A DNA stretch of 64,000 nt, from the NCBI GenBank assembly GCA_038882955.1, contig JAVZNC010000004.1:1-64000 (forward strand), given 5' to 3'. Origin of the DNA: Candidatus Bathyarchaeia archaeon. GTDB lineage: Archaea; Thermoproteota; Bathyarchaeia; Bathyarchaeales; Bathycorpusculaceae. A program made the translations under genes and the position numbers. The notes under the pieces are model-generated. The model saw nothing but the letters and a program-made list of their open reading frames with translations, searched no databases and was not told the DNA's origin. Positions 1-49,751 of this stretch are shown here, piece by piece. Position 1 is the first letter of the stretch. Every line of letters starts with the position of its first letter.

Positions 1-75
1 ACCCTCTATCTGTTGCATGACTCGCCCTTCATCCAATAATTCTAGCTTTCATATATTTTAAGGCGTGGTGAGTCC

Positions 76-210
76 TTACGGGAAGAGTTCAATCTCTTTC
101 TTGGCACCGCATTTGACACAGACAAGCTTAACGTGGGATTTGTTTTCTGTTAGTTCTTCAGCCTTCCATTCGTGGTCGCATTCAGCCCTATTCTCTTTTG
201 CTTCGTTCAT
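76..210 (-). CDS. Small Cys/His zinc-ribbon-like protein (44 aa), absent from the ORF track
   Basis: Manual translation MNEAKENRAECDHEWKAEELTENKSHVKLVCVKCGAKKEIELFP*; CxHxW and CxxCG motifs. Confidence 0.6.
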   Translation of the reverse strand: MNEAKENRAECDHEWKAEELTENKSHVKLVCVKCGAKKEIELFP

Positions 211-386
211 GCGAGTTTCCTCAACTTTAACTTTATATTCAAGAATTTAAATTTATTGTTTTCAAAGCAAGTATGCAACAATTCCTGCACTAACACCAGA
301 AAAGGATGGAGCACACATTGTTGCGCTAGCGTACGCACGGCTCTTGCAAAATGGTTAAGTTAAATCACGACACCTTTACAATTGTG

Positions 387-726
387 ATGAAAAGGGTTAC
401 GGTGGTTATCCGCCAAAGGGAAATAAGCAAGTTTTTCCCTCAAGCCTTTCAACTAACCCTGAAAAAAGAAGCCTCCATAATAGACGCCATAAAAGCCGTT
501 GATGAGGAAATAAGAAGGAAACTTGGCGTTTTTCCCGTAGAGAAATACGAAAGCTTACTTCAAATGGTATATCATCCAACCGAGAATAGATTCTACAAGC
601 AAGTAGCAATTCACGCCAATGTAAAGACTAAACTAATAAATATCAGAGAGAACCCCCACAGCACCGCTGCCAGATGAAACAACAATAATTTTGATACCAG
701 AAAATGGATGTCAAACAGACTGGTAA
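387..726 (+). pseudogene. Beta-grasp (ThiS/MoaD/ubiquitin-like) protein with an apparent frameshift in a C5 run
   Basis: MKRVTV..LTLKKEASIIDAIKAV..; removing one C at 653-657 continues RENP-TAPLPDETTIILIPENGCQTDW* (stop 724-726), which resembles the last strand of a beta-grasp fold. Confidence 0.45.
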
Positions 727-878
727 GAATCCATATAGTTTCACGTAAAACAAATCCTACAAAGAAACTACTAAAGTAAAAATATCTTCTTTTAAGAGAC
801 ACTAACAGAAAATTTTAAGATTTTGGAGGAATATAACATGCTAGAAGTTAATGGTGCATTTACGAAGAGGATAGGGTA

Positions 879-1376
879 ATGCGCGTTAAAGTTTTCGCCG
901 GAATTTTGCTTCTATGCGGCATTTTACTTTTAATAGAGGCGATTAATCTGTATGTTGCTACATCTGGCTTTCCAAACTGGCCTGAAACAAAAGTTCTTTT
1001 CCCTCAGCAGATTGTGCAAATAAAGAGCGATACTATTGAAGGTTGCCTTAGGATTCCCTTTAACGTTACAATAGAAGGACATGTCTACGCAGATGTGGGC
1101 ATACCCAACGGGGGTTATGCATTTACATTTTACGCCCCGTATTTTGAAACGTCTGATGGGCAAATGGTGAACAGTTGGATATTTAAGCCCGGAACATATT
1201 ATCTTGTGGTTCCATTCAAACTTGACCAAGGTCTAAGCTTGCCCTATGAAGTATGGGTTGGTATATATGAAGAAATTAAGATTCCACATCCATTGCTTCC
1301 GTATGGAATAGCATGCTTCATTTCAAGCGTGAGTTGCCTATCAGCCTCTATATACATAGCCGTTAAGCATAAATAA
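879..1376 (+). CDS. Hypothetical membrane protein (N- and C-terminal TM helices)
   Basis: 165-aa ORF with hydrophobic ends. Confidence 0.65.
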   Translation: MRVKVFAGILLLCGILLLIEAINLYVATSGFPNWPETKVLFPQQIVQIKSDTIEGCLRIPFNVTIEGHVYADVGIPNGGYAFTFYAPYFETSDGQMVNSWIFKPGTYYLVVPFKLDQGLSLPYEVWVGIYEEIKIPHPLLPYGIACFISSVSCLSASIYIAVKHK

Positions 1377-1519
1377 AACTATCAAACCGCTCCACTCGAT
1401 ATCAGAGTCATGTGGACGTAGAAAGATGAAAATGGACGGTTCTCGAGTGAATCATAACTTTAAAGTATGGATAAGCTCTTATTGTATTTGAAAACTGTGC
1501 ATTAAAGTGGTGTTGGTGC

Positions 1520-2032
1520 GTGTATAAGGTTCGGTTTGCATCTGCAGATGATGTTAAAAAACTGGTAAAATGTTACGTTGAGATATGGAAAAGTCTTGGT
1601 GAATGGTTACCTGAGTCGGTTATAAATCCTGAACTAGATGATCTACTTAAACCCGAAACGGTGGAAAGGTTAAAACAGCAAGTTGAAGATGCGAACTCGA
1701 TATTTTTAGTTGCGGAGAGTCTGGGGAAGATTATAGGATTGGCTCAGGGGAGGGTGTATACAGGTGTTTGTCAGCTCGGTTTCCTGGGTGTGAGAAAGGA
1801 GTTTAGAGGTAGAGGTGTTGGTGAAAGTTTACTTCATACATTTATTGAGGAAGCAAGGAAAAGAAAAACCCAGAAGGTTTGGCTTTATACATCGCCTACA
1901 CTCTTACCAGCAATAAAACTTTACATAAAAAATGGCTTTATTCCAGAAGGTTATCTGAGAAAGCATTTCCATGGCTCAGACCTCATAATCTACAGCAAAT
2001 TTCTATCAGAAGAAGGCAAAAAACAAAATTAA
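1520..2032 (+). CDS. GNAT family N-acetyltransferase
   Basis: VRKEFRGRGVGESLL acetyl-CoA motif A; AIKLYIKNGF. Confidence 0.9.
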   Translation: MYKVRFASADDVKKLVKCYVEIWKSLGEWLPESVINPELDDLLKPETVERLKQQVEDANSIFLVAESLGKIIGLAQGRVYTGVCQLGFLGVRKEFRGRGVGESLLHTFIEEARKRKTQKVWLYTSPTLLPAIKLYIKNGFIPEGYLRKHFHGSDLIIYSKFLSEEGKKQN

Positions 2033-2181
2033 ACTTAGTATGTTTTAAGATCCACTTATGTTCCTTAGGAGACAATAAAAGAACATGGTTGAAGTGACCC
2101 TGCTTCTTGAGAATAGCAGAAACTTTAACAAAGACTTGTGAATCATTGATGGTGAGGCAACATGAAAATTGGAGGATTATC

Positions 2182-2967
2182 ATGGCAATTTATGATCAAC
2201 CCTTATATTACGAGGTAGCTTTCAGTTTTTTCGATCCTAGCAGGCAAGTAGACTGTTTTGAAGAAATTATCTCGAGGTTCAGCAGGGTTAAGGTTCATCG
2301 GTTCTTGGACGTAGCTTGTGGGCCGAGTTTGCAGTTGAGGGAGATTGCAAGAAGAGGGTATGAGGCTGTTGGATTAGATACAAGCAAGGAGATGCTTGAA
2401 TATCTGCGCACCAAGGCCCAAGAAGAAGGCTTAAAGATAGAAACGGTTCACGCCGACATGACCAGTTTCAGGTTAAGGAAAAAGGTTGACTATGCTTTTA
2501 TAATGATGGGCTCCTTTGCCTTTAAGTCAAATGAGGATATGCTTAGGCATTTAGATTCCGTTGCAGCTTCGCTAAATAAGGGCAGCTTATATTTCATTCA
2601 AAACTTTGGGGTCAACTGGAAAGTTGATTGGACTAAAGCTCGGAAACAAAGCTGGGAAATGGAAAAAGATGGAATAAAAGTGAAAACAACCTATGAAACA
2701 CTCGTAAAGGATATTATAAACCAAATCGTCACAGAAAAAATAACATTTGACGTTGACGATCATGGACTGAAACGCACATTCACGCATGAAGAGGACTTAA
2801 AGCTGGTTTTTCCACAAGAATTTAAACTGCTCATTAAGTTACATAACAAGTTTGAATTTCTCGGCTGGTGGAGGGGTAATGCTGACTGGTGGTATTTAGA
2901 CCAGCCCCTTGAACAAACTGAAGAATCAAAACTCGATATTAACATGGTCCTTCTTAGAAAGAAGTAG
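2182..2967 (+). CDS. Class I SAM-dependent methyltransferase
   Basis: FLDVACGPS motif I, GLDTS, HADMT; start placed at ATG 2182 after GGAGG. Confidence 0.88.
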   Translation: MAIYDQPLYYEVAFSFFDPSRQVDCFEEIISRFSRVKVHRFLDVACGPSLQLREIARRGYEAVGLDTSKEMLEYLRTKAQEEGLKIETVHADMTSFRLRKKVDYAFIMMGSFAFKSNEDMLRHLDSVAASLNKGSLYFIQNFGVNWKVDWTKARKQSWEMEKDGIKVKTTYETLVKDIINQIVTEKITFDVDDHGLKRTFTHEEDLKLVFPQEFKLLIKLHNKFEFLGWWRGNADWWYLDQPLEQTEESKLDINMVLLRKK

Positions 2968-3169
2968 GTTAGGTTGTTATGATTAATTCATGCTTGCTAA
3001 TTACTTTCTACCACTTGTTTAGCATGTGCTCTCTTCTCTTTTTACTTTCCATTAATAACGTCTAACGGAAAATCTTGGTTCCCCTGCTATAAACTCGAAG
3101 AGGAAACTTGCGAAACATCTTTAATACAGGAATTGAAGTTCAAATTCCCTTGGAACCTCATCCATTTGG

Positions 3170-4582
3170 TTGCAAACTCTTATACGACCGCTATTTTTTC
3201 AAAAGCCTTATTTTTCAATTTGTGCATCTTTTCTTGAGAGGTTTGGAAAGTTGAGGAGAATTAGTTTAGGTCTTTTTATGATTTTGTTGTGTTTTGGTTT
3301 TCTGGTGTTTTCATTCGGTGTCCTGCCAGCCGGAGCTTTCAATCGAACTTCCTATGCTCAACTTTATGGCTTGGTCGGCTATTGGAGCTTCGATGAAGGC
3401 TCAGGTACAGCAGCCAAAGATGGCTCCGGTAACAACAATAACGCGACCCTGCATGGCGCTTCATGGACGAAAGGGAAAGCATGGAGCGCCTTGAACTTTG
3501 ATGGACTCAATGATTACGTTGATTGCGGAAACAATGAAACACTTGACCCGATACAGGGAGCTACTATCGAAGCTTGGGTCAACTTTGGTTGTTTGCCATC
3601 TGTTGCAGGACATACCATGGAAATTGCAAGTAGATCTGGCGCAAGTACTGACTTGGATTTGCAGGCGGAGACCGACAACAGATTCAAATTCTATATTGGA
3701 CCTGGAGTAGTTGTGGCATCGAATACGGTAGTTGAGATTGGCAGGTGGTATCATGTTGCAGCAACATACCAAGCTTACAACTGCACAAGAATGTACGTTA
3801 ATGGCATATTAGAAAAAACAACTTCAATAAATCTGGCAAGAGGTACAAATCCCAACAGTTTCTCTATAGGAGAAAGTTTGGTCTGGCGCGGAAGATATTT
3901 CAACGGCACAATAGACGAAGTCAAAGTCTACAATAGGCCCTTGTCTGCTGAGGAGGTTTGGTCTGAATACACACGCAATTGCGTATCGATCTCACCTTCG
4001 TACGGCGTTATGGATGTCGGTCAATCTCAACAGTTCGATTCAAGTGTCTCCGGTGGTGCATTTCCATATAACTACCAGTGGTATCTCAACGATGCGCCAG
4101 TCTCAGGCGCTACAGACGCCTCGTGGACGTTAACGCCGTCAACTCCGGGCTCCTACATCGTCTATCTGAACGTTACTGATGCAACAGACGCTTCTGCAAC
4201 GTCCAACACCGCCACTATTTCGGTGAATGAAGCGCTTCGCGTTACGATTTCGCCTACATCAGTCACCATGAACGTTACTGAGTCCCAACTGTTCATAGCC
4301 GAGGTTTCAGGTGGCACACCTCCATACTCCTTCCAATGGTATTTGAATGACACTGCAGTTCCCGGAGCTAATAGCACCACATGGACGTTCACGCCTGATT
4401 CGGTAGGTAACTACACGATATACGTAAGAGTCAACGATGCAGTAAGCTCAACTGCAGTTCCAGCAGAAGTGGGATCGGTCGTTGTGATTGTAGAATTCCA
4501 ACCATCGATGCTACTTTTCCTATTCATGATAATCACACTGCTCTGCGCGGTTATCTTTAAGAAAAAAGGTCAAACTCGCTGA
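3170..4582 (+). CDS. Secreted/surface protein: LamG (concanavalin A-like) domain, two Ig-like repeats and a C-terminal anchor
   Basis: LVGYWSFDEGSG..ALNFDG..WYHVAAT..FNGTIDEVKVYNRPLS; repeated SGGxxPYxxQWYLND; VEF-TM-KKK tail; true start probably downstream. Confidence 0.85.
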   Translation: MQTLIRPLFFQKPYFSICASFLERFGKLRRISLGLFMILLCFGFLVFSFGVLPAGAFNRTSYAQLYGLVGYWSFDEGSGTAAKDGSGNNNNATLHGASWTKGKAWSALNFDGLNDYVDCGNNETLDPIQGATIEAWVNFGCLPSVAGHTMEIASRSGASTDLDLQAETDNRFKFYIGPGVVVASNTVVEIGRWYHVAATYQAYNCTRMYVNGILEKTTSINLARGTNPNSFSIGESLVWRGRYFNGTIDEVKVYNRPLSAEEVWSEYTRNCVSISPSYGVMDVGQSQQFDSSVSGGAFPYNYQWYLNDAPVSGATDASWTLTPSTPGSYIVYLNVTDATDASATSNTATISVNEALRVTISPTSVTMNVTESQLFIAEVSGGTPPYSFQWYLNDTAVPGANSTTWTFTPDSVGNYTIYVRVNDAVSSTAVPAEVGSVVVIVEFQPSMLLFLFMIITLLCAVIFKKKGQTR

Positions 4583-4918
4583 TTTCGCATTGCACACAGA
4601 TTTATGTTCCCAAAAGTACAGCGCTAGAGAAAGTTTGCGCACGCATAGACTTGAACGCGTATATTTGCTTGAATAAAGTAACAGGTTTGCACCTGGAAAA
4701 GCTCGTGGGATGGCAAGGTGGCTACAAGTTCGCATCAAACCAATTATAGACGCAGCATTCTTGGAATAAACAACAACTTATAAAACCGCGAATGATTGAA
4801 GCCCAAATAGGCAGAAGGTTCAAAGTTGACAGCGTTAATGCAAAAAGGCTGTATATAAAGCGCGGTTTGAAGTTTTTGAAAATTTTCTAATAGTTATTTT
4901 TCTGGCTTGTCTGTTAAC

Positions 4919-5028
4919 GTGAATTAACAGAACATCCTTCATCATGGATTTCTAAGCGAGGGGGCGGTTTTTCTAACAGGAAAAACAGAAAAAATGCCGA
5001 AGTGAAAATGCAATGAGAGTATAAGTAT
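4919..5028. repeat. Left arm of an imperfect ~110-bp inverted repeat
   Basis: gtgaattaacagaacat (4919-4935), ggcggtttttct (4963-4974) and agagtataagtat (5016-5028) are matched in reverse complement at 5721-5830. Confidence 0.8.
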
Positions 5029-5123
5029 TGTTGAGGCTTATTCTCTATAATAGTATATTATTATTTACTAGTGTGGAGGGGAGGGGGTATCGCGGTTTTC
5101 TATTTTTCTAATGGGAAACTCTT

Positions 5124-5630
5124 ATGCCTCGTCCAAAAAAGTATGTGGATGCGGAGCCGCATTGCTTTCATGTTGACCACCAAGTCTACGCTAAACTTAA
5201 GCAGATACTAATGGAGAAGTTTGGCAGATCCGTAAGTGAAGAGGTTAATGACTTATTGCGGAAGCGTTTAGCAGAGCTTGAGGGCACACAGCCACCTGCC
5301 TATGAGACTGCTGACTATGAGAATCTGAAGCGTGAATATGCCAAGCTCTTTGACGAGGTTGAACGCCTTAAGACAGCGCTCAAGAAGCTCGGATGTTACG
5401 ACGAACTAATAGACCTGGTTCGCGAGTTGGGCTTAGACTTTGGCGATTTACACAACATGTGGGATATTGTGCCAAAACTTATGCAAAGCTGGGAAGACCG
5501 CGGACAAGCCCACCAGTTCATCAGCCTAATGGAAAAGGCCAAAAAGAAAAAAGAACTAGAACGCAAACTCACAGAAACTAGAATGGCGATTTCGCAGAAA
5601 ACCCAAACAAACAGAGGCCCCGCATCTTAG
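5124..5630 (+). CDS. Putative ribbon-helix-helix DNA-binding protein with a coiled-coil C-terminus
   Basis: MPRPKK..FHVDHQVYAKLKQI..RSVSEEVNDLLRK fits the CopG/RHH strand-helix-helix pattern. Confidence 0.6.
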   Translation: MPRPKKYVDAEPHCFHVDHQVYAKLKQILMEKFGRSVSEEVNDLLRKRLAELEGTQPPAYETADYENLKREYAKLFDEVERLKTALKKLGCYDELIDLVRELGLDFGDLHNMWDIVPKLMQSWEDRGQAHQFISLMEKAKKKKELERKLTETRMAISQKTQTNRGPAS

Positions 5631-5720
5631 ACTATTAAAAATTTGCCCCTGGGCAAAAAGCCCAACACATAGAAATGTGGTTTTAGGTTTCCTCCCCAAG
5701 TGTAGTATGTAAGAAATTAT

Positions 5721-5830
5721 ATACTTATACTCTTACTGTTTCGCTGTTTTTGCTTTTTGGAACGTTTTTCTATTCAGAAAATCCCGCCTGCCAGTCTTAA
5801 GTCGTGGAAGATTATGTTCTGTTAATCCAC
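5721..5830. repeat. Right arm of the imperfect ~110-bp inverted repeat
   Basis: atacttatactct (5721-5733, 13/13), agaaaatcccgcc (5776-5788), atgttctgttaatccac (5814-5830, 16/17). Confidence 0.8.
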
Positions 5831-5919
5831 AAATAGTTTTCCTTAAGCCCCAACCTAGACAACAACGCTTAGAAACTTTTTCCGTAAAACCTTAATATAA
5901 CACGCGAAAAATCCACTTA

Positions 5920-5942
5920 TTCAAATCCCGCACCCCGCGCCA
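5920..5942 (+). mobile_element. Orphan tRNA 3' fragment, putative att site of an integrated element lying to the left
   Basis: ttcaaat-cccgc-accccgc-g-cca = T-loop, T-stem 3' strand, acceptor 3' strand, discriminator, CCA; no 5' half upstream. Confidence 0.7.
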
Positions 5943-6053
5943 ATTTAAAAGGGGGTTTCTTGAACGTTTAGGGGTATTAGCGAAATTGTTTGAGTTTTCG
6001 GGTTGATATGTTTTGGTTTTGAGAATATGCCTTAAAAGTGTTTTTTCTTTGGT

Positions 6054-6830
6054 ATGTTTGGGGATTTGATGGGGGAGAAGGCTGCTCGTGTGTTTTTCTT
6101 GACTTTGTTTATTGTGGGTTATGGGGCTTTTTTGTGCGGGTTTGCTGGGGCTTGTAGGCCGCCGTGTATAAGGGTTTTGTCTCCAGAAGATGGCGTCATC
6201 TATGCTGTAAAGGATGTTCCGTTGATTTTTACTGTTGATAAGGTGGTTTCTTGGATTGGTTATTCTTTGGATGGGCAAGCGAACGTTACGGTTTTTGGGA
6301 ATGCGACGCTAACAGGGCTTGCGGATGGAGCGCATTGCGTTATTGTTTATGCGAATGACACTTTTGGCAGGATGGGTGCTTCACGTGAAGTCTGTTTTTA
6401 TGTTGATACTTTGCCGCCTAACATAACGGATATATGCCAATTTCCGTCAGCAGAAAATGTTTTTCCAGAAGATATTGTAGGAGTTAACGCTACAGTTACG
6501 GATGACGTGAGTGGTGTAAAGCGGGTTACGCTGTTTTATGCTCATGCAAACGCTAGTGGTGTGTGGATTAGCGTTGTTAACATGGTGAATGTTGAGGGAG
6601 AAGTCTGGAGCGCCGCCATACCTAGCTTCCCGTATTGTACGAACGTTACATACGCTATTGAAGCTGAAGATAACGTGGGCAACATCGCAACAACAGCAGA
6701 GATTGAATACGTCATACAATACCATGTAATTCCAGAATTTCCATCAGCTATTATTCTGACAATGTCAATGCTTGTCGTAGCAACGCTGTTAACCATTTTG
6801 TTCCGTAAGAGAAAGCAGTGTAAAACTTAA
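6054..6830 (+). CDS. Secreted Ig-like domain protein with a PEF-CTERM-like sorting signal
   Basis: Signal peptide; YSLDG..N..GLADGAH..VYANDTFG; IPEF-TM-RKRK tail. Confidence 0.8.
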   Translation: MFGDLMGEKAARVFFLTLFIVGYGAFLCGFAGACRPPCIRVLSPEDGVIYAVKDVPLIFTVDKVVSWIGYSLDGQANVTVFGNATLTGLADGAHCVIVYANDTFGRMGASREVCFYVDTLPPNITDICQFPSAENVFPEDIVGVNATVTDDVSGVKRVTLFYAHANASGVWISVVNMVNVEGEVWSAAIPSFPYCTNVTYAIEAEDNVGNIATTAEIEYVIQYHVIPEFPSAIILTMSMLVVATLLTILFRKRKQCKT

Positions 6831-6868
6831 TGGCAAGTTGAAACCAATAATAGTTTTGGTGCTGCCTG

Positions 6869-7429
6869 ATGGGCGTGTTTGAGGCAGTCCAGCGTAGGCG
6901 TTCAGTTCGCGCTTATGATTCAACTCCTGTTCCAAAAGATAAGCTTATGAAGATTCTTGAGGCTGCGCGGTTGGCGCCTTCCGCTGGTAATGTCCAGCCT
7001 TGGCATTTTGTGGTTGTAACAAACTTTGAGAAGAAGTGGAGAATAGCCCAAAGTGGGCGTTTTGCACGTTTTCTTGCTGAATCTCCAGTGGTGATTGTTG
7101 GTTGTGGAGATGAAAGGGCTTCGCCGAGATGGCATGTTGTTGATGTTGCAATAGCCATGCAGAACATCGTTTTAACAGCCACAAGCGAAGGTCTGGGAAC
7201 TTGCTGGATTGGGGACTTTGACGAGAAACTCGTTAAGGAGCTTTTACGTATTCCAGAAAGCTACCGTGTTATAGCTTTGTTAGCTGTTGGATATTCACGT
7301 AAAAAGTTTGACGTTCAAGGCAAGGTGCTTCACCTAATCAGAAGAAGAAAGAAGCTGAAAGACATTGTGAGTTTCGAAGAATTTGGAGCAAAAGACCGAG
7401 ACTACCTTTTAAACAAGCAAATGGTTTAA
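6869..7429 (+). CDS. Nitroreductase family protein
   Basis: RRSVRAY, APSAGNVQPWHFVVV, GLGTCWIG. Confidence 0.93.
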   Translation: MGVFEAVQRRRSVRAYDSTPVPKDKLMKILEAARLAPSAGNVQPWHFVVVTNFEKKWRIAQSGRFARFLAESPVVIVGCGDERASPRWHVVDVAIAMQNIVLTATSEGLGTCWIGDFDEKLVKELLRIPESYRVIALLAVGYSRKKFDVQGKVLHLIRRRKKLKDIVSFEEFGAKDRDYLLNKQMV

Positions 7430-8302
7430 GTTCATAAAATCTTTCGAAATTACCGCCCTGACACCCTTCTTTGGATCTACAACCTGATTTATCTCCAAGT
7501 TCACAGCTAGGCTTCCAAACATATACGCCTTCTCAAAGGACCATCCATACCTACGCATAAAAGCATTTATGGCAGCTTCAGACGCGTATCTCGCTGCTTC
7601 ATCCAATGTTTCTCCGCAAGCCAAAAGTGCATACGTGTTTCTCGTTTCTAAGATTGGCCATTCTGGCTTTTTTCCCTTTATCACGTCGAATTTTAGTAGT
7701 ATTTTGCCAGCCACTTCCACTGATGATACGCATAGTTCTCCGTCTGCTTGGGCAGCGTGCACGTCGCCGGCAGCAAATAATGCTCCCTCTGTGAACACTG
7801 GCAAGTATAGCCTAGTGTTTGCGGTTATTCCTTTAAAGTCCATGTTTCCGCCGTGTCTTCCAAGAGAGCCCGTTGGAATTTCACCCGATTCTGGCGCTGC
7901 GCCTATTGTGCCTATCATTGGTTTCGCTTCAACTTCGAGATCGTCAAAGTGTATGTAGCCATCTCTTATTTTGACGATTTTCGTGTAAGGGTTAAATTTT
8001 TTGTCGCCTAGTATTCCGCTCTTCGGTATGACAACCATAACGCCTTCATCTTCAATTTTCAAATCCAAAATTTCAACAACTAGCGTGTCTCCTGGACTTG
8101 CGTTTTTGATGAATATTGGTCCAGTCGCACCATCAACTTTTGTCCAGTCTAGGTTGTCTATGGAGTCTTTTTCGCTTCTTATTTGTCCGCCTAAGGCGTC
8201 TTCTGTTTCAAGTAAAACTGTTTCTTCTGGTTTGACTTTTAGGACTGGTTTATGTTTTGGTGAAAAAGCGTATATCACGTTACTTTTTGGAACTTTCTTC
8301 AT
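7409..8302 (-). CDS. Acetamidase/formamidase family protein
   Basis: TGPIFI..A.PGDTL, HGGNMD, GDVHAAQADGE. Confidence 0.9.
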   Translation of the reverse strand: MKKVPKSNVIYAFSPKHKPVLKVKPEETVLLETEDALGGQIRSEKDSIDNLDWTKVDGATGPIFIKNASPGDTLVVEILDLKIEDEGVMVVIPKSGILGDKKFNPYTKIVKIRDGYIHFDDLEVEAKPMIGTIGAAPESGEIPTGSLGRHGGNMDFKGITANTRLYLPVFTEGALFAAGDVHAAQADGELCVSSVEVAGKILLKFDVIKGKKPEWPILETRNTYALLACGETLDEAARYASEAAINAFMRRYGWSFEKAYMFGSLAVNLEINQVVDPKKGVRAVISKDFMNLNHLLV

Positions 8303-8535
8303 ATAGTCCGCTCCTACTTTTCGTTATTGTAGATTCATTTTTGCTTTCCCGTATTTTTGCTTTTCAAGGTTTATCAGTTATGGTCAAGCCCTTCATTCTT
8401 CTGGGGCAAGTCTGCTAGAGGCATCGGCATAAATTCTGTTGGGATTCTAATTTAAACTAAAGATGTAGAATCATATTTTGGACTATGTAAATCATTTATA
8501 TGATTAAAATTAATATTCACAAGACAGTGGACTGT

Positions 8536-9453
8536 ATGCTTGTTACTAATAGGGAGTTACTGTTAAAGGCTCGAAGCGGGGCGTATGCAGTAGGCGCTTT
8601 TAACATTCAGAATCTTGAAAGTTTTTTGGCTGTTTTTGAGGCTGCCGTTGAGGAGAAATCGCCAATTATAGTTGCCATTACGCCAAGCGCAATAAAATAC
8701 GGCGGTTTAGCCTACCTATCAAAAATTGTTAGAACCGCTGCTGAGTCCGCTTCTATTCCAATGTCGCTTCACCTTGACCACGGGGAGGACTTTGAAACCG
8801 TTTCGCGTTGCATCGAGGCTGGCTTCACTTCGGTTATGATTGACGGCTCATTCCTAAAGTTTGAGGACAATGTTGCCATTACAAGGAGTGTTGTTGATTT
8901 TGCGCATTCGCGCGGCGTTTCTGTTGAGGCTGAGCTTGGTAGGCTTGCTGGTTTCGAAGAGAAGACTGTTGAGGAGAAAGAAGCGGTTTTAACAGACCCT
9001 GACGCCGCGCATAATTTTGTTAGGCAAACTGGCGTTGACGCTCTTGCAGTGGCTATAGGGACTTCGCATGGCGCCTACAAGTTTAGGGGCGAACCCAGAC
9101 TTGACTTTGAAAGGTTGAAGCGCATAAGGGAGAAAGTTGATGTGCCGCTTGTTTTACATGGCGCTTCAAGCGTTCCGCAGTGGATTATTGAGAAAGCCCA
9201 AAAGTATGGTGCTGAACTTGGAGGGGCAAGGGGCATACCAGAAGAGCATATAACGAAGGCAATAGCGTTGGGCATAACTAAAATAAACATAGACACTGAC
9301 TTGCGGCTTGCTTTTACTGCCACAATACGTGAGGTTTTGGCAAAATCGCCGAAGGAGTTTGACCCTAGAAAGATTTTGGGTCCAGCGAAAGAGGCTATGA
9401 AAGAGGTTGTTAAGGGTAAAATGCGCCTTTTCGGGAGTTCTGGCAAAGCCTAG
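8536..9453 (+). CDS. fba: Class II fructose-1,6-bisphosphate aldolase
   Basis: YAVGAFN, LHLDHG, SVMIDGS, GTSHGAYK, LVLHGAS, KINIDTD. Confidence 0.95.
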   Translation: MLVTNRELLLKARSGAYAVGAFNIQNLESFLAVFEAAVEEKSPIIVAITPSAIKYGGLAYLSKIVRTAAESASIPMSLHLDHGEDFETVSRCIEAGFTSVMIDGSFLKFEDNVAITRSVVDFAHSRGVSVEAELGRLAGFEEKTVEEKEAVLTDPDAAHNFVRQTGVDALAVAIGTSHGAYKFRGEPRLDFERLKRIREKVDVPLVLHGASSVPQWIIEKAQKYGAELGGARGIPEEHITKAIALGITKINIDTDLRLAFTATIREVLAKSPKEFDPRKILGPAKEAMKEVVKGKMRLFGSSGKA

Positions 9454-9459
9454 TTTTGG

Positions 9460-10497
9460 GTGATGCAAATGAAGGTTGGAGTGTTAAGCGGTGGTGGAGA
9501 CGCGCCGGGCATAAACGCTGTTATAAGGGCTGTTGTTAGGAAGGGTATTAGGCATTATGGTGATGAGATTGTTGGCATAAGGGATGGCTGGTGGGGGCTT
9601 TTAGAAGGCGAGTATTTGCCGCTTGACCTAAAGTCTGTTTCTGGCATTCTTCCACGTGGAGGTTCAATTTTGGGCACTTCTAGGACGAACCCGTTTAAAC
9701 GTGAAGGTGGACCAGAAAAGATGATGGCTAACGCGGAGAAGGCTGGGATAAGCGCTGTTGTTGTTATTGGGGGAGATGACACTTTAAGCGTTGCTCATAA
9801 GATGGGCGATTTTGGGTTAAAGTGTGTTGGCGTGCCAAAAACGATTGATAATGACTTGTCTGGCACGGACTACACTTTCGGCTTTAACACTGCTGTTTCG
9901 ATAGCTACAGAAGCCCTTGATAGACTGCATACAACAGCTGAAACCCACCGCAGAGTCATGATTCTAGAAGTTATGGGACGATACACGGGTTGGATAGCCC
10001 TAGAAGCTGGAATTGCCGGCGGCGCGGATGTTATACTTATTCCCGAAAAGCCGTTTGATGTGGATGAGGTTTGCGATTACATAAGGCAGAGGCACGAAAG
10101 AGGGCGCAACTTTAGCATAGTGGTCGTTGCCGAGGGCGCAAAGCCAAGGGGCGGCAAAGAAGTCATTTACAGCGAAAGCATAGACGAGTTTGGGCACATA
10201 CGTCTTGGCGGTGTTGGCTACTATCTTGGAAAGGAGATTGAAAAGCGATTAGGCATAGAAACACGCGTTGTTGTTTTGGGGCACATCCAACGTGGCGGTT
10301 CGCCGACAGCCTTTGATAGGATACTGGCAACACGTTTTGGAATAGCCGCGATAGACTTTGTTCATGAGGAAAAGTTTGGACATATGGTGGCAATCAAGGG
10401 CAACCGCATAGTCTCTGTCCCATTGAAGGATGTTGTTGGAAAACGCAAAACCGTTGACTTGGAACTTTACGATATAGCGAAGGTGTTTTTCGGCTAA
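9460..10497 (+). CDS. pfkA: PfkA-family 6-phosphofructokinase, PPi-type signature
   Basis: GGDAPG, GGDDT, PKTIDND, EVMGR. Confidence 0.93.
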   Translation: MMQMKVGVLSGGGDAPGINAVIRAVVRKGIRHYGDEIVGIRDGWWGLLEGEYLPLDLKSVSGILPRGGSILGTSRTNPFKREGGPEKMMANAEKAGISAVVVIGGDDTLSVAHKMGDFGLKCVGVPKTIDNDLSGTDYTFGFNTAVSIATEALDRLHTTAETHRRVMILEVMGRYTGWIALEAGIAGGADVILIPEKPFDVDEVCDYIRQRHERGRNFSIVVVAEGAKPRGGKEVIYSESIDEFGHIRLGGVGYYLGKEIEKRLGIETRVVVLGHIQRGGSPTAFDRILATRFGIAAIDFVHEEKFGHMVAIKGNRIVSVPLKDVVGKRKTVDLELYDIAKVFFG

Positions 10498-10505
10498 AGA
10501 AGACG

Positions 10506-11468
10506 CTATGTTGCAAGAACCCTAGCTAACCTTAATAGGTTAAGGTCTAAAGGCTTTTCTTTGCCGCATGACTCTTCAAACTTTACGCTAAGTATTTTGC
10601 CGTTCTGTAATCCAACAACACTGTTTTCTTCGCCGTTCAGCAAGAGCCTAACAGCTGCGTCTGCGAATAAGCTTGCGAGAAGGCGGCTTCTAGCGGTTGG
10701 GTTTCCTCCCCTTTGCGCGTAACCCAAGATGCTTAATCTAACCTCTGCGCCCGTGTTTTTCTGAATTTCCGTTGCAAGCTTGCGCGTATCGCCTATGCCT
10801 TCCGCTGCCACAATTATGCCTGAACGCTTTCCCTTGGCGCTGTTCTCGCGTATAACTCTGAAAATTTCTTCTTTCTCCACTTTTTCTTCTGGAACTAGGA
10901 TTACCTCTGCGCCAACGGTTAAGCCTACGGTCGCGGCTAAAAATCCCCTAGTCCTTCCCATAACCTCAACTATGAATATTCTCTCATGTGATATGGCTGT
11001 GTCGCGAATCTTGTCAATTTCAGAAACAGCCGTATTCACGGCTGTGTCAAACCCTATGGTTTCGTCAACGCCATAAACGTCATTGTCTATCGTGGCTGGA
11101 ATCCCAACAATAAGTGCTTCTGTAAACGTGCTAAGTTCCAAGGCGCCCCTGAACGAACCATCACCTCCAATAACAATTAAGCCGTCAACTCTGTTTCGCG
11201 CTAGGGTTTCAGCCGCCCGTTTAAGTCCCTCTTTCCTCTTGAATTCTGGGCATCGCGAAGTTCGCAAAATAGTTCCGCCCAATTGGATTATTCCGCCAAC
11301 AGAGCGCGGCGTCAACCTCACAAAAGCATTGGTCAACAAGCCCTCCCAACCCCTCTCAAAGCCTAAAACCTGCAAGCCTTCTGCATGAGCAATGCGCGTG
11401 ACAGCCCTGATGGCGGCGTTCATTCCAGGCGCGTCTCCGCCACTCGTAACCACACCAACAGTTTTCAA
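10506..11468 (-). CDS. pfkA: PfkA-family 6-phosphofructokinase, ATP-type signature
   Basis: TSGGDAPGMNAAIR, GGDGS, PATIDND, EVMGR. Confidence 0.93.
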   Translation of the reverse strand: MKTVGVVTSGGDAPGMNAAIRAVTRIAHAEGLQVLGFERGWEGLLTNAFVRLTPRSVGGIIQLGGTILRTSRCPEFKRKEGLKRAAETLARNRVDGLIVIGGDGSFRGALELSTFTEALIVGIPATIDNDVYGVDETIGFDTAVNTAVSEIDKIRDTAISHERIFIVEVMGRTRGFLAATVGLTVGAEVILVPEEKVEKEEIFRVIRENSAKGKRSGIIVAAEGIGDTRKLATEIQKNTGAEVRLSILGYAQRGGNPTARSRLLASLFADAAVRLLLNGEENSVVGLQNGKILSVKFEESCGKEKPLDLNLLRLARVLAT

Positions 11469-11556
11469 ACATACTCACCCCGCGACAAGCAAGCGTTGCC
11501 AATCAAAGATAAATGTAGCTTTCAAGTAAAAAGCTTGTTAAGGAGAATGAAGCAAC

Positions 11557-11877
11557 TTGGAAAACACACATATAATCGTAATTGTGACAGCAGCAAGTAG
11601 AGCAGAGGCAGAAAAAATCGCGCATTTTCTACTTGAAGAAAGGCTGATTGCGTGCGCCAACATAATCGGTCCAGCACACTCGTTTTATTGGTGGCGGGGA
11701 AAAATCGAAAGCGCAGAAGAACACGTAATCATAATGAAAACCAGAAAAAGCCTATTCAACAAACTTTCAGAAAAAGTAAAAACCATACACAGCTACCAAG
11801 TCCCAGAAACAATAGCAATTCCAATCGTAAAAGGGTTCAAACCTTACATGAAATGGCTAGAAGAAAGCCTAGGGTAA
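11557..11877 (+). CDS. cutA: Divalent-cation tolerance protein CutA
   Basis: LIACANI..S.Y.W.GKIE..E..MKT; HSYQVPE. Confidence 0.93.
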   Translation: MENTHIIVIVTAASRAEAEKIAHFLLEERLIACANIIGPAHSFYWWRGKIESAEEHVIIMKTRKSLFNKLSEKVKTIHSYQVPETIAIPIVKGFKPYMKWLEESLG

Positions 11878-11910
11878 AGTTTTATAGTTTTAATATGCTC
11901 ATGAATGTTT

Positions 11911-12230
11911 GGCGGTGGGTCTTAGGCGGGGGGCTAGGGGTCCCCTGTACCGTAAACCCTCTATAGGACGGGCCGAAAGCTGGGGCTGAGGCGTCTGTGG
12001 ACGCCTAGAACCTCCACTTTCCGAAGCTTTGACTACCCGTCCCTTGGGGCTGGCGGTCGCTGGGCTGCTTCCGTAGGGAAGCTGTCTCCAGCGTTTACCA
12101 AGCGAAACTGGCCAGGCCCGGGAGGGAGCAACCTAAGTTTGGACGTTCGGCGCTCAAGGGGGTGCGGGTACGAGTGTAGGGTTTGGGGGTTAGGCGTATT
12201 CTGGGCGTCGAACCCCAGTGACCCACCGCC
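11911..12230 (+). ncRNA. ffs: Archaeal signal recognition particle (7S) RNA
   Basis: GC-rich 320 nt; ends pair (ggcggtgggtc / gacccaccgcc); helix-8 motif gccaggccc-ggga-gggagcaacc; AT-rich promoter upstream and T-tract after. Confidence 0.93.
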
Positions 12231-49490: not shown

Positions 49491-49597
49491 ATGCAAGTAA
49501 TTTCTGTAAAATCGAAAATGGAAGCCAAAACTTGCCCATTTTCAATACCCCCTCCCCTCTTATGTTTTTAGAAATCACGCAAAATTTCATTAATTGA

Positions 49598-49698
49598 TGC
49601 GGCCGCCGGGATTCGAACCCGGGATCGCAGGCTTGGAAGGCTTCCACGCGCTGTTTTGCCTTAGCGTCTGTGTCCTAACCAGACTAGACGACGGCCGC
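49598..49698 (-). tRNA. tRNA-Gly(TCC) with a 26-nt intron at non-canonical position 29/30
   Basis: GCGGCCG acceptor; removing 49642-49667 restores CAGGC-CTTCCAA-GCCTG anticodon arm; CCGGG-TTCGAAT-CCCGG T-arm; CCA not encoded. Confidence 0.92.
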
Positions 49699-49751
49699 AT
49701 GACGCTTTTCGTGTTATTCTATTTTCTAAAGTGTTGTAGATAAAACTTCTT

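Follow-up and report, generated by a model that had tools for sequence, protein, structure and literature searches.

Inverted copies of a putative promoter/operator module enclose a predicted regulator gene at a tRNA-Ser junction in a Bathyarchaeia genome

The first 64,000 nt of contig JAVZNC010000004.1 of a Candidatus Bathyarchaeia archaeon (GenBank assembly GCA_038882955.1, forward strand; referred to here as the window) contain a 168-aa open reading frame (ORF) with a ribbon-helix-helix (RHH)-like N-terminus that is enclosed by two diverged, inverted arms. The reading that we favor, and consider somewhat better than even, is that the arms are paired promoter/operator modules at the end of an integrated element, at its junction with a tRNA-Ser gene. 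The left arm would be the promoter/operator region of the RHH-like gene, whereas the right arm would be a gene-less subfamily copy at the outermost margin of the integrated DNA, directed inward, and the 23-nt tRNA-Ser(GCT) tail beside it would be a remnant of integration. As judged from sequence comparisons, the homology of the arms, their presence throughout a family of loci, the spacing of their blocks, the sharp boundary of the element, the tRNA origin of nucleotides 5920-5942 and purifying selection on both arms are established. The features of the unit are as follows.

4826-5123, plus strand: left arm, the predicted control module upstream of the ORF (nhmmer profile match, E 3e-55)
4873-4886, plus strand: AT palindrome of the left arm, TTTTTGAAAATTTT
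4883, 4969 and 5104, plus strand: copies of TTTTCTAAYAG in the left arm
4910-4931, plus strand: 8-6-8 palindrome of the left arm, TCTGTTAA-CGTGAA-TTAACAGA
5016-5028, plus strand: second TATA-like block of the left arm, AGAGTATAAGTAT
5076-5088, plus strand: G-rich run of the left arm
5124-5630, plus strand: 168-aa ORF; N-terminus (aa 1-55) RHH-like, C-terminal part helical
5631-5672, no strand assigned: joint between the units, with a GC hairpin (GCCCCTGGGC at 5645-5654, GGGCAAAAAGCCC at 5651-5663), read from the sequence
5673-5919, minus strand: right arm, a gene-less copy of the module of the subfamily termed R-type, directed inward (nhmmer, E 8e-18)
5776-5788, 5721-5733 and 5899-5891, minus strand: blocks of the right arm, the second resembling the second TATA-like block and the third a TATA-like run
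5920-5942, plus strand: last 23 nt (T-loop to CCA) of tRNA-Ser(GCT), the putative attachment-site scar and border between element and chromosome

The preliminary description of this region had recorded three sequence blocks that recur in reverse complement and span 110 nt on both sides, and its coordinates agree with the sequence. Nucleotides 4919-4935 and 5814-5830 are 94% complementary over 17 nt, 5011-5028 and 5721-5738 are 89% complementary over 18 nt (13/13 for 5016-5028 versus 5721-5733), and 4963-4974 is matched by 5776-5788 save for one mismatch and one indel. Inside the 110-nt span, 80 matches and 16 mismatches were counted after compensating indels, and TATA-like runs lie at 4852-4860 on the plus strand and at 5899-5891 on the minus strand. 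The weaker outward similarity that had been claimed turned out to be more extensive than described: ~228 nt per arm (left, ~4861-5088; right, ~5682-5907 in reverse complement) could be aligned with 145 matches and 44 mismatches, i.e., 77% of the aligned columns, and ~38 positions of each arm were gapped. With each of three scoring schemes chosen for diverged sequences, the arms in inverted orientation exceeded all 500 dinucleotide shuffles (z 8.2-12.1) as well as all of the ~1450-1473 random segments drawn from the window (z 8.0-12.4), which places the similarity clearly above its controls (z 8-12 overall). In direct orientation the score of the arms equaled background, and under a strict local score (+2/-3) the 17-mer alone was retained, with a value of 29 that is not above the control maxima of 30 and 33. 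Overall, the described pattern is genuine and of greater extent than first noted. No transposase lies between the arms, as had been stated, and the ORF is the sole gene inside; when the arm sequence and its consensus were read by eye, no small conserved ORFs were found within the arms.

Since inverted repeats enclose a small regulator gene, an invertible DNA switch, in which recombination between the arms would flip the gene, had been listed among the candidates. The arms are only ~77% alike, however, no recombinase was found in the first 12 kb of the window, and promoters at both outer ends would leave the gene with an equivalent promoter after a flip. Contigs of four runs from four studies contained three small "skips" and zero strand-changing joints, which is weak evidence given that contigs can miss rare forms. 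We consider such a switch highly improbable. Over 4818-5260, sequencing depth in the same four runs increased 3- to 20-fold, consistent with a family present in multiple copies in those communities.

The arm is distributed much more widely than the window. A profile iterated with nhmmer from the left arm matched 85 of the 95 sources searched; the comparison drew on 76 metagenome loci and 8 genome loci. The arm was found directly upstream of 54 of the 55 full-length ORF homologues for which at least 280 nt of upstream sequence exists. This upstream arm occurs in both protein clades (~85% and ~45% identity to the window protein), so that arms and ORF homologues are indeed found together elsewhere. 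A convergent arm downstream of the gene was observed for 4 of 50 long genes (the window, L010, L032 and L046) and for 12 of 19 short paralogues; gene-less, solo copies of the arm also occur. The window's own genome has four arms, of which three lie upstream of three gene copies and the fourth is the right arm of the window. Taken as a whole, the comparisons indicate that the arms are paralogous copies of a ~250-bp non-coding module, predicted to be a control region.

From the outside inward, the consensus of the module consists of a TATA-like box, TTTTTGAAAATTTT, the palindrome TCTGTTAA-N6-TTAACAGA, CCATG with a G-rich stretch, TTTTCTAAYAG, a GAGAGTA(T/A)(A/T)AGTAT block, a G-rich run, and TATTTTTC immediately before the start codon. 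The GAGAGTA(T/A)(A/T)AGTAT block looks like a second TATA box with its TFB-recognition element (BRE). Half-sites of the palindrome are nearly invariant and its 6-nt spacer is lineage-specific; in the loci compared, the palindrome precedes the start codon by 199-215 nt. In 85 arms the distance from TTAACAGAAC to GAGAGTA was 89-93 nt, and that from TTAACAGAAC to TTTTCTAA was mostly 44-46 nt. The equal 110-nt spans of the window therefore reflect a family-wide constraint.

Block-wise conservation had been attributed to selection for protein binding or RNA structure rather than to recent duplication. The first of these attributions is upheld by spacing that is fixed across the family; the second is not, as an RNAalifold analysis of 40 non-redundant arms revealed no conserved fold, with pairs that were either invariant or broken and none that were compensated. 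The consensus fold of seven R-type arms amounted to -6.7 kcal/mol over 281 columns, and no arm matched Rfam, even at an E of 1. Because spacing is rigid and RNA covariation is absent, selection probably acts at the DNA level, on protein sites and their phasing, and not on RNA structure. The same results bear on the possibility that each arm is a ~200-230-nt non-coding RNA gene, the left one serving as leader of the ORF mRNA and the right one yielding a free convergent RNA that acts by base-pairing, antisense or interference. In line with this possibility, each arm has a TATA box at its outer end, a GC hairpin and a T-run close the R-type arms, T5 runs are found on the minus strand of the window near 5637-5659, and solo arms, including the convergent pair of locus L118, exist without an ORF to drive. 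The right arm is also conserved almost uniformly, at 94%. Conservation of blocks and distances, on the other hand, is what would be expected of DNA sites, several T5 runs occur early in the putative left-arm transcript, and the consensus folds are weak and devoid of compensatory change. An RNA gene in each arm, and with it the earlier proposal of two convergent paralogous small RNAs, is rather unlikely.

The right arm clusters with the arms of L010, L048/L079 and L116-L119, at 77-93% identity, and a DNA search located this R-type in 6 of 121 family genomes. None of the R-type arms has a family gene directly after it. In addition to the hairpin and T-run already mentioned, their ends carry a palindrome, TTTTCTATTTATATAAATAGAAAA. 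The left half-site of the 8-6-8 palindrome is lost only in the R-type copies of the window and L010, the right arm of the window keeping the right half-site alone (TTCTGTTAA, plus strand, 5817-5825). Truncated arm starts in L048 and L079 fall at TTCTGTTA motifs. Left-arm homology with L010 and L016 begins at 4826, and L010 has ~110 nt more than the window at the joint between the units. Two further interpretations of these sequences were rejected: GGTTCAAA at 4817-4824 is not an attL remnant, as it aligns with ordinary arm sequence of L010, and the outer half of the right arm is not a chimera from another unit, as it aligns with canonical arms over its full length save for the destroyed half-site. 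L118 (genome G112, contig C10, 914-1703) has two facing arms, separated by ~300 nt that contain no ORF, and no homologue of the ORF was found in G112.

The unit has a counterpart on contig C2 of G011, a genome of a different genus, at the identical tRNA-Ser junction, and three genomes of the window's own genus have an empty site. Between the window and G011:C2, the ORF shows 0.43 differences per synonymous site (pS), a synonymous divergence (dS) of 0.64 and a ratio of non-synonymous to synonymous divergence (dN/dS) of ~0.13, and the flanking host genes have dS values of 1.39 (FBA) and 2.6 (phosphofructokinase, PFK). As the dS of the ORF is below that of the host genes, the unit is younger than the split of the hosts and was transferred or re-integrated. 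The left arms of the two copies are 87.9% identical and the right arms 94.3-94.4%, and the outermost 50 nt beside the tRNA core are identical in the two genera. By this measure purifying selection acts on both arms, and most strongly on the gene-less right arm, which is no decaying relic.

Immediately outside the right arm, nucleotides 5920-5942 are identical to the 3′ end of an intact tRNA-Ser(GCT) gene at the syntenic spot in genomes G001, G002 and G003. In G002, the intact gene is followed by those for nitroreductase, acetamidase and FBA, and the same genes follow the fragment in the window; in G001 and G003, the intact tRNA gene occupies the corresponding position upstream of FBA. The window and G011:C2 cease to be homologous exactly at 5942, and a contig from run X2 has the flank of G011 from that position on. 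A 20-mer of the scar occurs in 71 of the 121 family genomes, mostly once per genome. When the sequence upstream of 85 arms was inspected, a T-loop-like motif was found for only one, the right arm of the window. G011 has its intact tRNA-Ser gene on another contig, followed by an integrase gene and a prim-pol gene, with no arm. These observations bear out the proposed link between the arms and an integrated element: the arms are an end-module of elements that integrate in tRNA genes, and the right arm touches the tRNA-Ser scar.

The two genes located before tRNA-Ser(GCT) in G002 have orthologues in the window's own genome at C4:116470-119447, outside the window, inverted and 110 kb from the tRNA fragment, where they adjoin an intron-bearing tRNA-Asp gene and a tyrosine integrase gene with a Zn-ribbon. 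This integrase family is present at at least nine loci in the genome, several of them fragments and many of them on small contigs or at contig ends. Rearrangement between element copies is a plausible cause of the displacement; such rearrangement has been reviewed for Thermococcus, according to the excerpted text (PMC8371274).

Clustering of neighboring genes together with Pfam and PHROG scans identified mobile-element genes beside the module, which on this basis belongs to small tRNA-integrating elements of hot-spring Bathyarchaeia. Their gene order consists of the ORF, small genes, a primase/helicase gene and a tyrosine integrase gene, and in ten related loci the ORF and a small gene are followed by a D5-like primase/helicase gene. 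Locus L106 of G011 comprises, in order, a host surface-protein gene, the arm, the ORF, a winged helix-turn-helix (wHTH) gene, a small gene, the gene for an 888-aa D5_N/DUF5906 primase-helicase, that for a 425-aa integrase, and tRNA-Glu. In L107 of the same genome, a host major facilitator superfamily (MFS) gene is followed by an arm, a short paralogue that converges on it, a wHTH gene and, further on, genes for an archaeo-eukaryotic primase (AEP), a 592-aa protein and an integrase. The module is situated at the integrase-distal end in both loci, and in one clade the arm is internal, between integrase and ORF. Directly past the integrase gene, a tRNA gene is found in L106, where it is co-oriented, and at several loci of the window's own genome. 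A search of the ends of L106 and L107 for att-like direct repeats found none.

The outermost conserved sequence of the elements is a terminal motif, TTCTGTTA[GA]TAATGTYTAAT, with 64 instances and 54 distinct outer flanks. Pairwise identity among these instances is 0.29 outside the border and 0.50 inside it. In the clade with ~45% identity, 57 instances of the motif are inverted and overlap the gene's stop codon, with an identity of 0.52 before the motif and 0.30 after it. A gene boxed at an element end by inverted, arm-derived sequence is therefore the normal design of the family, and the window shows that design with an unusually long outer copy. The left end of the window's unit is without the terminal motif, the ORF adjoins an inverted arm downstream and not a replicase gene, and no integrase or replication genes were found in positions 1-12000 of the window; the nearest integrase gene is at C4:118137-119447 of the same genome.

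Some elements of different clades (for example, L022/L031, L053/L102 and L034/L064) have common sequence just outside the terminal motif, which suggests that the same chromosomal targets are used repeatedly. In 12 loci, genes for anchored surface proteins with immunoglobulin-like or beta-helix domains (cluster c3) are found immediately beyond the element terminus. A surface-protein gene also occurs at 6054-6830 of the window, and in G002 the nitroreductase gene follows tRNA-Ser with no gene in between; the copy in the window is therefore an extra insertion.

Placement at the element end raises the question of whether the arms are a recombination architecture, that is, an attachment-site arm with phased sites for the integrase and accessory proteins, in which the RHH-like protein would be a directionality factor and the palindrome and TTCTGTTA motif would be recombinase sites. 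Homology breaks at TTCTGTTA motifs, namely at the terminal motif, at the arm starts of L048 and L079 and at the lost half-site of the window, and an 8-6-8 layout with variable classes of spacer recalls the core sites of tyrosine recombinases. The module is, moreover, always at the end of an element, its spacing is rigid, and the 50 nt beside the tRNA core are the same in two genera. Against this, the integrase genes adjoin tRNA genes, so that the crossover sites would be tRNA sequence and not the palindrome, and of seven integrase loci in the window's own genome only one has a palindrome within 13 kb. The palindrome is accordingly an unlikely crossover site. One module also accompanies two unrelated clusters of integrases, the ends of L106 and L107 lack att-like repeats, and the arm is internal in one clade. 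We judge a recombination architecture to be unlikely.

Another possibility is that 4826-5942 is a miniature, non-autonomous derivative, a regulator gene between terminal inverted repeats that is moved in trans by the integrases of full-length elements. Inverted arm-derived sequence is present at both ends of the unit, the gene of the ~45%-identity clade is likewise boxed by the inverted terminal motif, and the genome has the many loci of matching integrases noted above. The shared tRNA-Ser junction in a different genus, the empty sites within the genus and the comparatively low dS of the ORF would also fit. However, the arms are not multi-copy in the manner of a transposon or a miniature inverted-repeat transposable element, being single-copy in their own genome apart from the two paralogous gene loci, and no target-site duplication was evident by eye at 4826 and 5942. 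The tRNA gene beside the unit is not regenerated, unlike in site-specific integration, and the left end lacks the terminal motif. In G011, a surface-protein gene of cluster c13 also flanks the unit, so the piece that was transferred may be larger. A miniature element of this kind is improbable.

Lower still is our estimate that the arms are replication origins, or iteron regions close to an origin, of the element family. The module does contain an AT-rich palindrome, a perfect inverted repeat, three copies of TTTTCTAAYAG and G-rich tracts, and in 10 loci it adjoins the operon of regulator and replicase genes. One type of arm is found with different replicases (D5-like versus AEP primase), however, and solo arms are conserved in chromosomes with no replicase nearby. 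In pRN1, according to excerpts of the published account, the origin is downstream of the replicase gene (PMC4234260). An origin is very improbable on these grounds.

The ORF is predicted to be the regulator gene of the element family. Its relatives in a large protein collection numbered 15, all of them nameless, and those with a named source were hypothetical proteins of Bathyarchaeia. A homologue was found in 7 of 61 related genomes, a protein profile matched 10 of the 121 family genomes, and the window's own genome contains two more paralogues. The N-terminal 55 residues are the part conserved across long and short forms, with an invariant G34-x-S36 turn and F15, which we take to resemble the RHH signature. 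Matches to RHH families of Pfam were all below threshold: FitA-like in 5 of 14 members (best E 0.014), VapB in 3 of 14 and ParG in 1 of 14 (E 0.0011). Among 15 remote homologues of the N-terminal 60 aa with E <=0.001, ten were scanned against Pfam and gave one weak VapB match. The PDB sequence search with the protein returned nothing relevant, an Atlas search returned leads below 0.9 only, and no matches to the protein were found in phage records, plasmid records or IMG/VR. These sub-threshold similarities are hints of an RHH fold for the 168-aa protein.

If the favored reading of paired promoter/operator modules holds, the module would act as DNA, in the form of protein-binding sites phased about two promoters of archaeal type. 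The 8-6-8 palindrome would be bound by a dimeric protein, in the simplest case the RHH-like product, and expression would thereby be set. The promoter of the right arm would fire toward the 3′ end of the gene and its transcript would stop at the minus-strand T5 runs of the joint (~5637-5641 and ~5655-5659), which are predicted to terminate it. The outcome would be a convergent, co-regulated pair of promoters.

The RHH-like protein is the simplest candidate for the factor that binds the palindrome. With one mismatch at most, the palindrome occurs in 25 of the 121 family genomes and in 7 of the 10 genomes that have the gene. Several points weigh against the paired-promoter reading. The gene for the protein is missing from 18 of the 25 genomes with a palindrome, and R-type arms are present in three genomes without a detectable homologue (G089, G095 and G112). 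A dimer operator in the right arm of the window is doubtful given the loss of the left half-site, and the near-uniform conservation of that arm exceeds what scattered binding sites need. Searches of Pfam, NCBIfam, PDB sequences and remote homologues yielded no RHH match above threshold. Neither an integrase nor a replicase gene accompanies the element in the window, the intact tRNA-Ser gene is absent, and the contig begins 4.8 kb to the left of the unit. Neither the 5′ part nor an intact copy of tRNA-Ser(GCT) was found in the genome's own assembly, which is 95.6% complete. Because AGY serine codons require this tRNA, the gene is expected in the genome, and it probably lies beside element DNA in the unassembled 4%.

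Sites resembling the palindrome also occur before unrelated genes, at 788-809 of the window, C2:283953 and C12:376. The site at 788-809, TCTTTTAA-GAGACA-CTAACAGA, has two mismatches to the arm palindrome and lies ~90 nt upstream of a 165-aa membrane-protein ORF (879-1376); spacers of the GAGACA type were likewise seen at C12:376 and in G132, G083, G095 and G144. At L140 (G077:C8, 7918-8987), an arm-type palindrome, TCTGTTAGTCGCTGTTAACAGA, is followed after 18 nt by a CRISPR-like array, for which TRF gave a repeat of 37 nt and a period of ~75. The spacer class of this palindrome is present in at least six genomes, including the window's own, where C2:283953 precedes an uncharacterised ORF of ~340 aa. 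One can imagine from such sites that the arm functions without its gene as a self-contained, cis-acting "end organiser", that the palindrome is an operator common to unrelated genes and a CRISPR array, that one DNA-binding factor links element ends, defence loci and host promoters, and that the boxed gene is a minimal derivative moved or regulated in trans. The basis of this idea is that solo copies are 94% identical where synonymous sites differ by 43%. We hold it to be a minor possibility.

Some features of the window lie apart from the unit. Nucleotides 49596-49699 (minus strand) encode a tRNA-Gly(tcc) with a 26-nt intron, which was detected with the intron option of ARAGORN and missed by the default scan, and 11913-12228 encode an archaeal signal recognition particle RNA (Rfam RF01857, 179.7 bits). 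Two paralogous PFK genes are arranged tail to tail, at 9460-10497 (plus strand) and 10506-11468 (minus strand). The "tRNA-Phe with 888-nt intron" reported by ARAGORN at 9317-10299 overlies a PFK gene and looks spurious.

Mobile elements of Bathyarchaeia have hardly been described, and a non-coding end-module now defines a family of small, tRNA-integrating ones. The terminal motif, with its many distinct outer flanks, offers a DNA signature of element borders for the annotation of metagenome bins, and the module would account for contig breaks and rearrangements at such sites. With its rigid spacing and conserved gene-less copies, it is also a good object for the study of archaeal promoter and operator architecture. 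Our literature search, which covered articles without their supplements, found no account of this Bathyarchaeia element family, only of viruses and of Asgard and Thaumarchaeota elements; within that scope the module, its rigid spacing and the conserved solo copies appear to be undescribed.

Several known systems resemble the module in part. The attP arm of the lambda type, ~250 bp of DNA adjacent to the crossover core, holds several protein sites whose distances are constant. Similarly, the right arm adjoins a tRNA-derived core and has rigidly spaced blocks; it differs in that the arm has TATA boxes, accompanies different families of integrases and is internal in some elements. In the Sulfolobus plasmid pRN1, as far as the excerpts tell, the small repressor gene orf56 stands first in an operon with the primase/helicase gene orf904, downstream of an essential promoter region of 64 bp (PMC4234260), and the orf56 repressor is of RHH (CopG-like) nature (PMC6619245). 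The ten loci with ORF, small gene and D5-like primase/helicase gene are similar in arrangement. Their upstream region is, however, ~250-340 bp with rigid multi-block spacing, the elements integrate, solo copies exist, the window copy is without a replicase, and no sequence similarity to pRN1 was found. Cryptic integrated elements of Thaumarchaeota, as outlined in the accessible parts of two reports, combine a tyrosine integrase, an AEP or superfamily 3 helicase (S3H) replication protein and RHH or wHTH regulators, and reside in tRNA genes (PMC6563490, PMC8371274). With pTN3-like elements, as the same parts describe their layout, the family shares a tRNA gene immediately beyond the integrase, but the text available for these and the Thaumarchaeota elements mentions no conserved non-coding 8-6-8 end-module; the host class also differs, and the window has the end-module only. 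F55 of SSV1 and other RHH regulators of archaeal viruses act on several promoters of their element, according to excerpts of the reports (PMC9608457, PMC5569661); no homology was detected, and operator layout and genome context differ. While we assign the module to none of the named families, its closest analogues are the pRN1 operon, the cryptic elements of Thaumarchaeota and the lambda arms.

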